This document shows positions 40,646 to 47,420 of a stretch of DNA of 64,000 nucleotides, in pieces. This stretch comes from a phage. Each line of letters starts with the position of its first letter. Within the stretch, counting starts at the first letter, position 1. The notes beneath the pieces were generated by a model, which did not search any database, was not told where the DNA came from, and saw nothing but the letters and a program-made list of their open reading frames with translations. Location of the stretch: NCBI GenBank assembly GCA_023802575.1, contig GCA_023802575.1_3947.1, one strand, 5' to 3'. The position numbers and the translations under genes were made by a program.

Positions 40646-40655
40646 GCTGCGTCGA

Positions 40656-40904
40656 TTAGTTATAATCTTGCTTGTTGTAGTACAGGGAGACAATTTTTTC
40701 TCCCCAGTAGTGGTAGTGATATTCCTCGTTTATGGCTTCTTTTACAGCGTCCTTCCAAAAGTCATCGGTAGGGTTATAATCTGGTAGCACCTGCTGAATC
40801 AGCATTTTGATAAGGTCAAAGGTGTTATTTGTTCCACCGATATCGAATTTTGCATCAAGTTCGTGGCAGCCATAAGCATTAACAGTTACGCGGATAGTTG
40901 ACAT
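40656..40904 (-). CDS. Small accessory protein
   Basis: 82 aa; preceded by type-1 cassette. Confidence 0.5.
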   Translation of the reverse strand: MSTIRVTVNAYGCHELDAKFDIGGTNNTFDLIKMLIQQVLPDYNPTDDFWKDAVKEAINEEYHYHYWGEKIVSLYYNKQDYN

Positions 40905-40972
40905 AATTTAGATTCTCCAGTTTAGGACTTTGTTTAGTGGGGAAGGTCATTCCCTCCCCGTTGATTAGTAAT
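40905..40972 (-). promoter_or_regulatory. Intergenic cassette, type 1
   Basis: Conserved block (minus sense) CAACGGGGAGGGAATGACCTTCCCCACTAAA...AAACTGGAGAATCTAAATTATG. Confidence 0.6.
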
Positions 40973-41236
40973 TTACTGCATATTGGCGTATGTTGCAAGC
41001 CTTTTTTCGTTGTATTTTGTAAGAATCTCACAAGACAAAACATCGTACTTTGTAACAGCGTTGCCTTTGTCGAGGTCAAAGAATCCAAATGCTTTACCAT
41101 CTTTGAATCCGACAACTTCGTAAGATTCTTTGATGATTTCACCATTGAATAAATCGCTTTCGATACGGTGAAACAGTGCTACATCTTCTTTGTCAGTTGC
41201 AATCTGCAATAGTGTGGTTAATTCTACGTTTTCCAT
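40973..41236 (-). CDS. Small accessory protein
   Basis: 87 aa. Confidence 0.5.
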   Translation of the reverse strand: MENVELTTLLQIATDKEDVALFHRIESDLFNGEIIKESYEVVGFKDGKAFGFFDLDKGNAVTKYDVLSCEILTKYNEKRLATYANMQ

Positions 41237-41302
41237 CTTGATAACCCCTAGTTTAAGGACTTTATTTAGTGGGGAAGTGATTTCTTCCCCTTGATAGACA
41301 CT
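41237..41302 (-). promoter_or_regulatory. Intergenic cassette, type 1 variant
   Basis: GGGGAAGAAATCACTTCCCC hairpin plus conserved CCACTAAATAAAGTCCTTAAACTAGGGG leader. Confidence 0.55.
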
Positions 41303-41830
41303 TTAAAGATTTGATAACGTTTCGTCAAGTGCATTTTCTAAATTTTTTAAAGATTTTTCGTAAAGCTTGATTAAATCTGTTAATGCCTTGCCTAACGTTA
41401 CTTTAAAGATATCTGTTTTGTATTCACTTGTAAACAGTTTTTCAACTTCATAGATTGGGTGTTGTTGATTGCCTGTACCAGTAGCAGACACGCCAGTGTA
41501 GAAAATTGCAATAAAAAGGTTATGAGACTTTATAGAGCGTTCATAAGCCATTTTGTATTGGTTTAGCTCGTTTTTAGTCGCCTTGATAGCCATTTCGTGA
41601 ATTTCTGCGACGATAGCCATATAATCCGGCAGGATAACCGCTACGGCCTTCATAAAGTTGTTAGCTGTTATCATTTGCTGATTTGGGCGATGTATGTAAT
41701 ATTTCTTATCTTCCCCTTTCGTGATAACTGCAAAAGTTTTATCTTTCAGGGTAAATTCGAAAGTATCCTTGACAGGCTTTTTCATTACGTCTTTTGAGCG
41801 AATAGTGTTGATTGCTGTGAACTTATTCAT
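41303..41830 (-). CDS. Accessory protein
   Basis: 175 aa. Confidence 0.5.
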   Translation of the reverse strand: MNKFTAINTIRSKDVMKKPVKDTFEFTLKDKTFAVITKGEDKKYYIHRPNQQMITANNFMKAVAVILPDYMAIVAEIHEMAIKATKNELNQYKMAYERSIKSHNLFIAIFYTGVSATGTGNQQHPIYEVEKLFTSEYKTDIFKVTLGKALTDLIKLYEKSLKNLENALDETLSNL

Positions 41831-42030
41831 CTTGATTTCTCCAGTTTAGGAAGTTGTTTTGCTTGATAGGTACTATAGGGCTTTTAGAAAGTGATTGCAA
41901 GCAATTTTTTAAGTTTATCTATAAAGAATCTTTTAAGTGAATCCCTTTTAGATAAACCCCCTCGAACAAAGTTACCAATGTCAAGAGGGATTGTCAACAT
42001 TTTTTTTAAAAGTTTTTTGTAAGTTATTGA
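41831..42030 (-). promoter_or_regulatory. Long intergenic spacer with tandem TTGACA boxes
   Basis: Minus sense TTGACAATCCCTCTTGACA and degenerate leader ...CCTAAACTGGAGAAATCAAG. Confidence 0.45.
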
Positions 42031-42372
42031 TTAACTGATGAATATTTTTTCAGGTTTTACATAGCTGATACGCTGATTTTTTAGCAGGCTATCCCATAAC
42101 AAGGCGGCAATGTGCCCATATCCGGCCTCACGCAGACCCTTCATCGTTTCAACTCGACTCTCAAAACGATTTGCGTAATACTCGCTATTAAGTGTCGTTT
42201 TGTTTCCTTCGTTATCTGTATGGATGATTTGCATCACTTGAAAGGGGCTGACATCCTCGCCTTTGTTCCACTGCTCAAAGTATTTTAGGCACTGCATAGG
42301 CGACATCTTATCACTGACTTGAGTTGACCAAGATGAATTTTCTTTATTGGTAATTACAGTTACATAAGCCAT
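42031..42372 (-). CDS. Accessory protein
   Basis: 113 aa. Confidence 0.5.
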   Translation of the reverse strand: MAYVTVITNKENSSWSTQVSDKMSPMQCLKYFEQWNKGEDVSPFQVMQIIHTDNEGNKTTLNSEYYANRFESRVETMKGLREAGYGHIAALLWDSLLKNQRISYVKPEKIFIS

Positions 42373-42458
42373 TTTAGAATCTCCAGTTTAGGATTTAGTG
42401 GTAAAGCTCTTTATCTGGGGCTTAAGATACCAACTTTTAAGCCCCCTGTAAAGTACTT
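42373..42458 (-). promoter_or_regulatory. Intergenic cassette, type 2
   Basis: Minus sense TTTACA-17nt-TATCTT embedded in hairpin GGGGCTTAA/TTAAGCCCC, then leader AGATAAAGAGCTTTACCACTAAATCCTAAACTGGAGATTCTAAAATG. Confidence 0.6.
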
Positions 42459-45566: not shown

Positions 45567-45856
45567 GGTGCTTCCTCTTTACGTGACACTTTGCCATTTA
45601 CAGTTATCTCATAAGAATCTAGTAAATCGCTTTTAGCTTTGACAGGACTTTTAAGAGTATCATCATAGATATTAACTTGCAATACAGGTTTTTTATACCC
45701 CATGCAACTATTCCATAAGCAAATCACTACACGACGACCTTTTATTTTACCGTGTAACCATTCCATAACATCATGGCTGTTTCTTGATGTTTCAATGAAA
45801 TCAATTTTGTTGAGTAACTTGCTTAGATTTTCACGAACTTTATTTGATAATTTCAT
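45560..45856 (-). CDS. Small accessory protein
   Basis: 98 aa; overlaps downstream gene start. Confidence 0.5.
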   Translation of the reverse strand: MKLSNKVRENLSKLLNKIDFIETSRNSHDVMEWLHGKIKGRRVVICLWNSCMGYKKPVLQVNIYDDTLKSPVKAKSDLLDSYEITVNGKVSRKEEAPC

Positions 45857-45871
45857 TTTTGAATCTCCAGT
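45857..45871 (-). promoter_or_regulatory. Truncated cassette (leader only)
   Basis: CCTAAACTGGAGATTCAAAAATG without hairpin. Confidence 0.4.
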
Positions 45872-46084
45872 TTAGGATAAAATAGTAATCGTAAAATTGT
45901 AATGACCATTAAGCTGATAAGCATAACAGTTAGAGAATACACCAACTAACCGAGGTTTTCCATAAATTTTCATGCGCTCTTTAATCTCTTTGAGAGATTT
46001 CAAACCTGTAAGGTCTTTATTGAAATAGTCATCATCTGTGAACAGGACTTGTGAGGCGGTTTTCAGTTTTTGATTAATGTTCAT
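45872..46084 (-). CDS. Small accessory protein
   Basis: 70 aa. Confidence 0.45.
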   Translation of the reverse strand: MNINQKLKTASQVLFTDDDYFNKDLTGLKSLKEIKERMKIYGKPRLVGVFSNCYAYQLNGHYNFTITILS

Positions 46085-46172
46085 TTTTGAATCTCCAGTT
46101 TAGGATTTAGTGGTAAAGCTCTTTATCTGGGGCTTAAGGTATCAGCTTTTAAGCCCCCTGTAAAGTACTTTA
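46085..46172 (-). promoter_or_regulatory. Intergenic cassette, type 2
   Basis: Hairpin GGGGCTTAAAAGCTGATACCTTAAGCCCC plus leader. Confidence 0.6.
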
Positions 46173-46431
46173 TCAGATTAAATTGCCAGTTAATGATAAG
46201 TGCATTTTATAGCCTTTTTTGGTAAAGACGTTCACTTTACCGAGTGATTTTACACCTTTAAAAAGGTTGTTTGAACTGCGTTTTAAGGTTAGTTGTTTAT
46301 CAACCTTCACGCCCCACCTTACAGCAGATTGTTTTCCGTTGTCAACCACTTTCCCGCATAACTTTTTAGCCATGATACGAGCGTCATCACGAGTTTTTAC
46401 AGTAATTACAACGTTTTTGATAATAGCCATT
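46173..46431 (-). CDS. Small basic protein
   Basis: 86 aa from ATG at 46431 (MAIIKN) with GGAGAAC RBS; Lys-rich. Confidence 0.5.
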
Positions 46432-46516
46432 TTTAAGTTCTCCAATTTAGGATTTAGTGGTAAAGTTCTTTATCTGGGGCTTACTTTATCGGACTATAAG
46501 CCCCTTGTAAAGTACT
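46432..46516 (-). promoter_or_regulatory. Intergenic cassette, type 2
   Basis: As above. Confidence 0.6.
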
Positions 46517-46900
46517 TTATTTGTTAATTTTGAAGATAGTTACGTAACCATCACTACCGATTATTTGAGACGCTCCAGCTTTTTCTACTTGATAGCCCAT
46601 ATTTTCAAGATGATAAATAGCATCATCGTAACCGTATGCGCCACCCTGATAACGTCTCTTGTCACATCTTATCAGGTTTTTTCCACGTCCTGCAAGTGCA
46701 TGGAGAATGGATTTTTCACTTGAAAGAGTACCATCTAGCATTGTAGCTGTGTAATGGTTGATTTTATTCCCGTTGATATCGTACTTGAAATTAAATGAGT
46801 GAACAACAATAACGTTACCTTTAAAATTCTCATCAAGTGACTTCTCCAGTGCGTTGCGAAAGTTGTCTTTGTTCACGAATTTAGGTGCACGGTATGCCAT
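46517..46900 (-). CDS. Accessory protein
   Basis: 127 aa; first gene of the cassette array. Confidence 0.5.
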   Translation of the reverse strand: MAYRAPKFVNKDNFRNALEKSLDENFKGNVIVVHSFNFKYDINGNKINHYTATMLDGTLSSEKSILHALAGRGKNLIRCDKRRYQGGAYGYDDAIYHLENMGYQVEKAGASQIIGSDGYVTIFKINK

Positions 46901-46975
46901 TTTTGAATCTCCAGTTTAGGACTTTGTTTAGTGGGGAAGGTCATTCCCTCCCCGTTGATGCAAATACTAGATAAC
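46901..46975 (-). promoter_or_regulatory. Intergenic cassette, type 1
   Basis: CAACGGGGAGGGAATGACCTTCCCCACTAAACAAAGTCCTAAACTGGAGATTCAAAAATG. Confidence 0.6.
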
Positions 46976-47420
46976 CACGTTCAAAGAGTCAAGAAAAATT
47001 TTAAAAATATTTTTGGCAAAACTGTAATGAAACGGGCGCACACGACTACCACAAAACAGAACACAAATCAAGAATTATTTTTCAATCCGCTACAAATTTT
47101 TCTCTTGACTTTTGGGGAGAGGGGGAGTAAGAGGGGGAGAGGGGTTGGTCTGGCTGTTTATAAAAACCTACCTGCACAATTCTAAAATGATTTTTCTTGC
47201 CCGACCTGAGCGGGGTCTGCACGTTTTGAAAATGAAAAAGCTCTTTGGAGATTACCTGCACAGTTTGAAAATGAATTTTCCCTTTGGAGTTCAAAATTCT
47301 CTCCACAGATTTCTGTCCAGACTTTTACCTGCACAATTCTGAAATGAAAAAGCCCCCCTTACCTGAAAAATTTACCAGATAAGAAAGGCTTAGTCTATTG
47401 TGTATATTCTACACAGTTTC
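46976..47420. repeat. Non-coding region with purine G-tract and four direct repeats
   Basis: GGGGAGAGGGGGAGTAAGAGGGGGAGAGGGG at about 47110-47147; four copies of CTGCAC(A/G)NTT(C/T)(T/G)(A/G)AAATGA at about 47170, 47215, 47255, 47328. Confidence 0.6.

Follow-up and report, generated by a model that had tools for sequence, protein, structure and literature searches.

Promoter-early stem-loop (PeSL) cassettes were described in T4-type phages as composite intergenic elements, defined by a σ70 promoter with an AT-rich upstream tract and by a Shine-Dalgarno (SD) sequence plus ATG at the 3' end. Their polyG/polyC stem-loop, which tolerates G-T pairs, occupies one of five positions, including between or over the promoter boxes and just after the -10; the cassettes lie among ORFans, indels end in the motifs, and T4-like phages are the only group for which such elements have been claimed (Arbiol et al. 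2010, PMC2839356; Comeau et al. 2014, PMC4122927). Here we analyze a 64,000-nucleotide stretch of phage DNA (contig GCA_023802575.1_3947.1, hereafter the window, whose coordinates are used throughout) belonging to a Felixounavirus, that is, a Felix O1-like phage. It contains a ~6-kb block of small genes, almost every one of which is preceded by a near-identical promoter, RNA hairpin and ribosome-binding leader. We interpret this island as a row of self-contained expression units built from composite cassettes of the PeSL type, a reading to which we would assign a probability of about 0.72.

The island comprises 16 minus-strand open reading frames (ORFs) of 65-185 aa, designated g1 to g16 in the direction of transcription and spanning 46900 down to 40656. 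A repeat search of the window returned a 104-nt repeat and a 70-nt repeat, six times each, and 12 of the 15 intergenic gaps hold one of these two families in six copies each: type 1 ahead of the ORFs starting at 46900, 45143, 44280, 42707, 41236 and 40904, and type 2 ahead of those starting at 46430, 46084, 44785, 43991, 43657 and 42372. The type-2 core, TTTACANGGGGNTTA-N13-TAAGCCCCAGATAAAGA, occurs six times, always on the minus strand, against 0.00 occurrences expected by chance; the type-1 hairpin block is present in three copies at no more than three mismatches (0.00 expected), with three further variants detected by profile search. Profile searches recovered all 12 cassettes and, across the window as well as the complete Felix O1 genome, placed cassettes nowhere else but in this island, save for a weak relative between rIIA and rIIB. 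An earlier sequence-only reading of this DNA had proposed 16 small ORFs separated by two repeat families, which these counts bear out. Its statement that nearly every gap carries a module holds for 12 of the 15; the other three differ (an SD stub, another hairpin and a plain promoter), and one gene overlaps its predecessor.

On the coding strand, a type-2 cassette runs from an AT-rich tract through TTTACA, a 17-nt spacer, TAnnnT, AAGCCCC and AGATAAAGAGCTTTACCACTAAATCC to the SD leader. Its stem, GGGGCTTA/TAAGCCCC, surrounds both spacer and -10 and extends to a three-helix hairpin of ~20 bp; the arrangement of TTTACA, 17 nt and TA...T within a hairpin, as originally proposed, is borne out for this family. 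A type-1 cassette carries TTGAnn, a 17-nt spacer, a TAAATT-like hexamer and a 10-nt block ending in ATCAAC, followed by a GGGG...CCCC hairpin, ACTAAATAAAGTCC and the same SD leader as type 2. Every cassette copy has the tracts upstream, ATAAAGTAC / AAAATTTTTC, and ends in the ...GGAGATTCAAAAATG leader. Folding of both types pairs the SD sequence GGAG of the shared leader with an upstream UCCU over a UAAACU loop. The leader variants are AAACTGGAG and AAACTAGGAG, and the two leader forms, CCT...GGAG (83 copies) and CCTT...AGGAG (59 copies), are never mixed; they differ by a paired T/A insertion, through which the helix gains one base pair. The leader claimed to be common to both types is thus indeed shared, but its variation, taken to be an A/G substitution, is this paired insertion. 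In Erwinia phages, an AAGGA SD sequence pairs with CCUU likewise. In the record of Citrobacter phage Mordin, only a 14-nt repeat_region is annotated before some ribosome-binding sites.

Conservation of the promoter elements was assessed in a set of ~145 cassettes from 13 genomes, comprising 68 unique sequences of type 1 and 67 of type 2. Of the 67 unique type-2 cassettes, 65 retain TTTACA, and all 65 (33 distinct cores) have a TAnnnT -10 at 17-18 nt, the middle three bases of which vary among at least eleven forms. Among type-1 cassettes, 56 of 59 have a spacer of 17 nt, and information content reaches 2.0 bits at -10 positions 1, 2 and 6 and 1.3-1.9 bits at -35 positions 1-4, compared with 0.1-0.8 bits at most positions of the spacer. 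This conservation profile is that of a σ70 promoter. When the minus strand of the window was scanned for promoters, 10 of 13 matches fell in intergenic cassettes, in a fixed register.

The hairpins, too, show signs of constraint. Type-2 sequences of the window fold into three stacked helices of ~20 bp at -18 to -23 kcal/mol (z -2.8 to -4.4), and when 47 distinct sequences are aligned, pairing extends to 96.8% of cells, with double-sided changes at five pairs. The covariation score, 0.118 versus 0.062 for shuffled alignments, was reached by 0 of 500 shuffles, and pairing falls to 31-57% in controls with slid positions. One outer-helix pair is G-C in 37 sequences and U-A in 7; in the U-A variants, the left arm loses its own palindromic symmetry while retaining complementarity to the right arm, which favors a hairpin over a pair of independent protein sites. 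Type 1 presents 27 distinct hairpin sequences in 58 cassettes, all folding at the same place. Its stems include GGGGAGGG/CCTTCCCC, GGGGGA/TCCCCC, GGGGAAG/CTTCCCC and GGGGG/CCCCC, with GGGC/GCCC in SUSP2-type copies, and per-sequence folding with tallies of stem position gave a mean energy of -13.6 kcal/mol, against -4.0 for shuffles. Wobble pairs occur in both families. At one type-2 position, 44 of 47 sequences have U·G; at a second, CG occurs in 36, UG in 10 and UA in 1, leaving none unpaired; and every non-Watson-Crick pair in type 1 is G·T. Wobbles of this kind allow pairing only in the sense-strand RNA. Erwinia phage M7 (Kolesnikvirus) has the same layout with other stems, GGTGTTT...AAGCACC and GGGGTTA...TAACCCC. 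Overall, these patterns support the view that the stem-loops are selected RNA structures.

Comparison of genomes shows that recombination also uses the cassettes as homology. Matches to the 6.4-kb region occur in 258 phage records, nearly all of them Felixounavirus or other Ounavirinae, with hosts in Escherichia, Salmonella, Shigella and Citrobacter. None of these 258 relatives covers at least 80% of the island in one place, whereas equal-sized flanks reach this level in 211 of 276 and 194 of 253 records (76-77%), a few records being split by linear ends in a way that slightly lowers island coverage. Of 97 homology-block ends, 76 (78%) lie within 15 nt of a cassette, compared with 28% expected from the share of island positions. 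Gene order among the relatives compared consists of a conserved backbone with presence or absence of single genes, the variable ones being x16, x04, g3 or x01, g9, g12, x11 and g15 in our labels. Identity to each relative is a mosaic of 65-100% per gene, with the best match shifting gene by gene. In the closest relative, TH10, which is 99.7% identical just outside the island, g8 and g12 are missing and the alleles drop to 76% for g9-g11 and 81% for g13-g14, the switches falling at cassettes. The same gene can follow different cassette types in different phages, as g13 does (type 2 here, type 1 in most relatives).

Junctions of deletions take the form of chimeric cassettes. In genomes lacking g9, the single remaining cassette corresponds to the upstream cassette on its left and to the downstream cassette on its right, SUT_S920 having its crossover after the hairpin and heid before the -35; in genomes lacking g12, a type-1 cassette is joined to g13 within a 15-nt sequence, GGAGATTCTAAAATG, common to both types. 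The island is hyperplastic, and its organization is one of conserved gene order with gain or loss of single genes and allele swaps, not of free scrambling. Shuffling of accessory genes, suspected originally by analogy, is visible among relatives in the block ends, chimeric junctions and mosaic identities, and the cross-phage comparison that had been recommended reveals a variable rather than an invariant island. Two further junctions are recorded here as separate observations. Citrobacter phage Mordin (locus L013, positions 640-782) has two tandem type-2 cassettes with no gene between them, a configuration suggestive of a lost gene or of an unoccupied landing site. In Shigella phage vB_SflM_004 (locus L002, ~2340-2440, read in the direction of transcription), a type-2 cassette gives way after its 5' half, within the loop of the hairpin, to unrelated sequence, and a truncated x01 gene follows; this resembles an illegitimate junction at the loop.

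From sequence and conservation, each cassette would supply its gene with a host σ70 promoter, a GC-clamped RNA stem-loop and a standard 5' leader, in which the GGAG Shine-Dalgarno sequence would be weakly paired with the upstream UCCU. The two types are predicted to differ in where the hairpin falls relative to the transcript. In type 2, the start is predicted 7±1 nt past the -10, at CCCC|AGAUAAAG, just beyond the inner stem; since the stem lies over the spacer and -10, it would be transcribed only by polymerases arriving from upstream. The type-2 hairpin would thus be a 3' element of the gene before it, an assignment supported by the promoter-less copy of the hairpin that follows the last gene, and it would act in attenuation, 3' stabilization or processing. 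In type 1, the stem-loop begins 10 nt past the -10 and the predicted start lies 2-3 nt before it, which would yield an mRNA with a 5'-terminal hairpin. Such 5'-terminal stem-loops shield E. coli mRNAs from 5'-end-dependent attack by RNase E, and the 5' untranslated region (UTR) of ompA is a stabilizing stem-loop of this kind; the predicted type-1 geometry, 2-3 nt from the mRNA 5' end, is likewise one that would block RNase E. The cassettes of 60-100 nt, together with their common leader of 15-25 nt, offer recombination some 12 direct repeats as homology, by which single genes are deleted, inserted or replaced, each keeping what would be a working promoter and ribosome-binding site.

Compared with the PeSLs of T4-type phages, the likeness is extensive. 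Both have σ70-type -35 and -10 boxes (here at ~17 nt) with an AT-rich upstream region, a polyG...polyC stem-loop with G·T pairs (here over the spacer and -10 in type 2 or just after the -10 in type 1), and an SD sequence and ATG at the cassette 3' end; both sit in hyperplastic regions of small genes of unknown function, and in both the ends of indels or replacements between related phages fall in cassettes. Every feature of the published definition that sequence can address is present, which sustains the PeSL analogy first drawn from the letters of this DNA and supports, at the level of sequence, a match in both architecture and behavior. There are also differences. The phages here belong to the Ounavirinae lineage and are not T4-like, and the sequence families of their cassettes found matches only among Ounavirinae records, no alignment to T4-type PeSLs having been made. 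The cassettes form two tightly conserved families with a common leader in one island per genome, whereas T4-type PeSLs are numerous, resemble one another loosely and are spread over several hyperplastic regions. The type-2 stem here extends to a three-helix hairpin of ~20 bp, and the leader has a mini-hairpin pairing the SD. Finally, promoter, terminator and mini-circle activities have been measured for T4-type PeSLs and are at most predicted for the present cassettes.

Several observations weigh against the composite-cassette reading or limit its force. Promoter-like sites as a whole are not in excess in this AT-rich region (22 versus 20.7 expected), so that the argument rests on register and conservation, and it is from conservation that we infer promoter activity. 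Published reverse transcription PCR (RT-PCR) in Felix O1 speaks in favor of the promoters in that the island ORFs were transcribed, with maxima at 5 or 25 min, by a crude method that left the starts unmapped; we found no link between these timing classes and cassette type. Cassette copies are related by descent and gene conversion, and covariation counts therefore overstate the number of independent events; similarly, the covariation between the two leader forms is only suggestive because both haplotypes may derive from a single event spread by conversion. RNAalifold returned no consensus from a MAFFT alignment of type 1, in which indels shift the stems out of register. The direction of indels, gain or loss, is indistinguishable. 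Canonical intrinsic terminators were considered and rejected for the cassette hairpins, which have no U-tract after them (type 2 continues with AGAUAAAG, type 1 with ACUAAAU), and a terminator scan reported none of them; that a genuine terminator, a stem plus TTTTTT, follows the terminal hairpin suggests that the cassette hairpin itself is not an efficient terminator. A search of Rfam 15 with 38900-47600 gave nothing at E <= 1.

One alternative treats the hairpins as sites of RNA processing. In phage T7, long, imperfect RNase III hairpins lie between the early genes and remain on the processed mRNA ends; as there, long imperfect hairpins stand here between the genes of an early row that would be transcribed by host RNA polymerase. 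On this account the type-2, and perhaps the type-1, hairpins would be RNase III or RNase E sites that cut a polycistronic early transcript into monocistronic, hairpin-capped mRNAs, the hexamers being weak or secondary. The ~20 bp of the type-2 fold in three helices with internal loops (-18 to -25 kcal/mol), the covariation of its outer helices (GC 37 versus UA 7 at one pair), the wobble pattern pointing to sense-strand RNA, the lack of U-tracts in cassette hairpins and the promoter-less copy after the last gene would all suit such a role. Yet TTTACA and TAnnnT are conserved inside an otherwise variable loop, where a processing site would have no need of them, and the type-1 spacer varies freely while its hexamers stay fixed. 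T7 itself differs in that its early genes share three upstream promoters and its sites are not gene-shuffling repeats. We regard processing in place of promotion as unlikely; the two roles are compatible, and processing would be more an addition to the cassette than a replacement for it. A broader elaboration of the composite-cassette reading, which we consider doubtful as a whole, would add insulation at the RNA level: genes bracketed by hairpins, leaders that mask the SD, and a preset level and stability of expression, in units that would move as excised circles between co-infecting Ounavirinae and be subject, all at once, to a factor of phage or host, such as RNase III, or to a leader-binding protein as a global switch. 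Movement might extend even across genera; the g14 allele is closest to that of a Suspvirus.

Two further explanations do without one or the other half of this picture. Type 2 could be a DNA operator, its promoter-overlapping imperfect palindrome bound by a dimeric regulator of phage or host, for example in early shut-off, with the RNA fold a by-product. A 27-nt imperfect palindrome does overlap the -35 and -10, AAAGTACTTT upstream of the -35 is a perfect 10-bp palindrome, AAAGAGCTTT recurs downstream, and the island genes of Felix O1 peak at different times; but variants such as AGATTTCTTT lose symmetry of the left site while keeping or improving complementarity between the arms, a DNA palindrome would be mismatched at the conserved U·G pairs, Erwinia phage stems keep their pairing with wholly different sequences, and no candidate regulator was identified. 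An operator is, on balance, highly improbable. No more credible is the notion that the repeats are regulatory regions duplicated with their genes in tandem or inherited by common descent, with no part in recombination, in an island that varies simply since its genes are dispensable. The largely conserved gene order among relatives would be in keeping with it. The 16 proteins, however, fall in 16 different PHROG families, so that the genes themselves are not duplicates; one gene may be preceded by different cassette types in different phages; the junction cassettes are chimeric, with crossover points that differ between lineages; and the concentration of homology-block ends within 15 nt of cassettes (78% versus 28% expected) would be left unaccounted for. 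Composite cassettes combining promoter, stem-loop and leader thus remain the favored reading.

Fragments of these elements have been on record for some time. The island corresponds in Felix O1 to genes 15-23, nine genes only. Two repeats, one of 57 bp, CTTTACATGGGGCTTAAAAGTCTGTAAAGTAAGCCCCAGATAAAGAGCTTTACCACT, and one of 39 bp, TTGACACTGGTTTTTAGATAGATTAAATTACACATCAAC, appear in the genome paper of Felix O1, which notes them simply as repeats lying between genes 15/16, 19/20, 18/19 and 20/21; it offers no reading of them in terms of promoters, hairpins or recombination, and its list of putative promoters omits them (Whichard et al. 2010, PMC3185647). In our comparison, the 57-bp repeat is the type-2 core and the 39-bp repeat is the type-1 promoter. 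Papers on VpaE1, wV8 and comparative Felixounavirus genomics contain no discussion of these repeats or promoters, and no paper linking PeSLs to Felix O1-like phages or Ounavirinae was found in a search that left subscription-only literature outside. The cassettes themselves are widespread: type 2 was found at 1,463 places in 289 phage records and type 1 at 1,328 places in 245. These records represent Ounavirinae of the genera Felixounavirus, Mooglevirus and Suspvirus, with weaker relatives of type 2 in Kolesnikvirus; the exceptions are a handful with other organism labels, including single Staphylococcus and Campylobacter entries.

The finding would take the PeSL mechanism outside the T4-type phages, into a second and unrelated subfamily of myoviruses, and suggests that promoter/stem-loop cassettes offer lytic phages a general means of keeping plug-and-play accessory genes. 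The Felix O1 genome paper left the transcription of genes 15-23 open; the cassettes are candidates for their early promoters and 5' UTRs. The island represents a defined pool of exchangeable genes in ~250-290 sequenced phages, many used in therapy or biocontrol, and is a good place to seek functions in host takeover or counter-defense, the g10 family (Bas63 gp107) already showing host-dependent effects on fitness. For the engineering of Felix O1-like phages, the cassettes would be natural landing pads.

The individual units, all on the minus strand, are described here in order of transcription. All 16 proteins match PHROG families over their full length, each a different family and every one of unknown function; among the same 16, Pfam yielded nothing except one sub-threshold match to DUF417. 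The first island promoter would be that of the type-1 cassette at 46901..47000 (TTGACT-17-TAGTAT, hairpin 46933-46953, leader and SD), which precedes g1 (46517..46900, 127 aa; phrog_4495 at full length, no Pfam match). A type-2 cassette at 46431..46516 (TTTACA-17-TAAAGT with the GGGGCTTA/TAAGCCCC hairpin) leads to g2 (46173..46430, 85 aa; phrog_5089), and another at 46085..46172, whose extended hairpin folds at -22.7 kcal/mol (z -4.4), to g3 (45872..46084, 70 aa), which 3 of the 14 relatives in the comparison carry (EC106, HY02 and TH10). Ahead of g4 (45560..45856, 98 aa; phrog_4401), there is only a 15-nt cassette stub at 45857..45871 (CCTAAACTGGAGATTCAAAAATG), consisting of the 3' end of the leader and the SD. 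The next gene, g5 (45234..45566, 110 aa), starts at 45566 and overlaps g4 by 7 nt, leaving neither gap nor cassette; an N-terminal hydrophobic helix can be read from its sequence. A type-1 cassette (45144..45233; TTGATT-17-TAAATT, hairpin 45178-45198) and a type-2 cassette (44786..44870, identified by promoter scan, folding and core pattern) precede g6 (44871..45143, 90 aa; phrog_3436) and g7 (44381..44785, 134 aa; phrog_4327), respectively.

Further along, a type-1 variant at 44281..44380 (TTGACA-17-TAAATT, hairpin GGGGAGGCAATAACCTCCCT) stands before g8 (44083..44280, 65 aa), which is missing in TH10, and a type-2 cassette at 43992..44082, with a variant leader without CCACTAAAT, before g9 (43743..43991, 82 aa), whose presence varies among relatives. 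The type-2 cassette at 43658..43742, in which the 5' arm GGGGTTTA creates a U·G pair, precedes g10 (43100..43657), the largest product at 185 aa. A third kind of gap follows at 43032..43099, where a hairpin, GGCCCGTACAGGGCC (43050-43064), with another SD context folds weakly (z -1.3) ahead of g11 (42798..43031, 77 aa; phrog_4640), which from sequence only may carry an N-terminal signal with a lipobox-like LSIC. Next are a type-1 cassette at 42708..42797 (TAGACA-17-TATAGT, hairpin 42741-42761) with g12 (42459..42707) and a type-2 cassette at 42373..42458 (promoter scan, folding and core pattern) with g13 (42031..42372, 113 aa). The 200-nt gap at 41831..42030 has a plain promoter (TTGCAA-17-TATAGT, 41872-41900) and the shared SD leader; folding detected no hairpin in it (z 0.13). 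It precedes g14 (41303..41830, 175 aa), whose best nucleotide match is in another genus (Suspvirus SUSP2, 84%). The type-1 variant at 41237..41302 (TTGACG-17-TAAAGT, hairpin GGGGAAGAAATCACTTCCCC at 41271-41290) has its -35 inside the 3' end of g14 and serves g15 (40973..41236, 87 aa; phrog_7022), and the type-1 cassette at 40905..40972 (TTGCAA-17-TAAATT, hairpin 40939-40959) stands before g16 (40656..40904, 82 aa; phrog_4559), the last gene of the island.

Both ends of the island are bounded by terminators. Upstream, a terminator scan located an intrinsic terminator at 47350..47391 (minus strand), a 17-bp stem followed by TTTTCATTT, after a macro-domain gene (47421-48206; Pfam PF01661); it marks the upstream boundary of the island transcription unit and is the equivalent of terminator t13 of Felix O1. 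Downstream, on the same strand, a promoter-less hairpin of the cassette type, GGGGCTAAATAGCCCC plus AGATACC (40630-40645), is followed just after by an intrinsic terminator of a stem and TTTTTT (40594-40618), together (40594..40645) equivalent to Felix O1 terminator t23. This terminal hairpin follows the last island gene in 11 of the 11 genomes whose locus reaches the island end (the window and 10 relatives).

The only cassette-like match outside the island in the window is a weak relative in the gap between rIIA and rIIB, where 52740-52783 (minus strand) contains a promoter-like TTGACA-18-TAGAAT whose spacer is filled by a GGGGCTT/AAGCCCC hairpin. The element follows the same design principle off the island, and its Felix O1 equivalent lies at 2282-2341. 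Between the 47350-47391 terminator and the first island promoter, a non-coding stretch of ~390 nt (46960-47350, minus strand) contains the motif TCATTTT(C/A)(A/G)AAnnGTGCAG(G) four times, along with a C-rich tract, CCCCTCTCCCCCTCTTACTCCCCCTCTCCCC; small antisense ORFs are annotated there in some records. Beyond the island end, a non-coding gap of ~1.7 kb (38960-40650), between convergent plus-strand genes and the island, is dense in short direct and inverted repeats, with TTAACA/CTTAACAG units at a 31-nt period from 39620 to 39800. Its conservation in TH10 is 91.9%, and its sole annotation in related records is repeat_region; it could be an origin, a regulatory region or a packaging region.

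Among the cargo, g10 is predicted to adopt an ADP-ribosyltransferase/Tpt1-like fold; a sequence search of the PDB gave no match. It is a homologue of Bas63 gp107 (54% identity), which a 2024 preprint describes as weakly Tpt1-like and more essential on E. coli S17-1. The macro-domain gene upstream is annotated in relatives as a phosphatase or an O-acetyl-ADP-ribose deacetylase, and its product may form with g10 an eraser and writer pair for ADP-ribosylation. Outside the island, a 471-aa ORF (29152-30567, minus strand) has the length and genomic position of Felix O1 ORF42 ('RNA-binding protein') and of Bas63 gp130; in the PhageMaP preprint, Bas63 gp130 is identified as a counter-defense factor.

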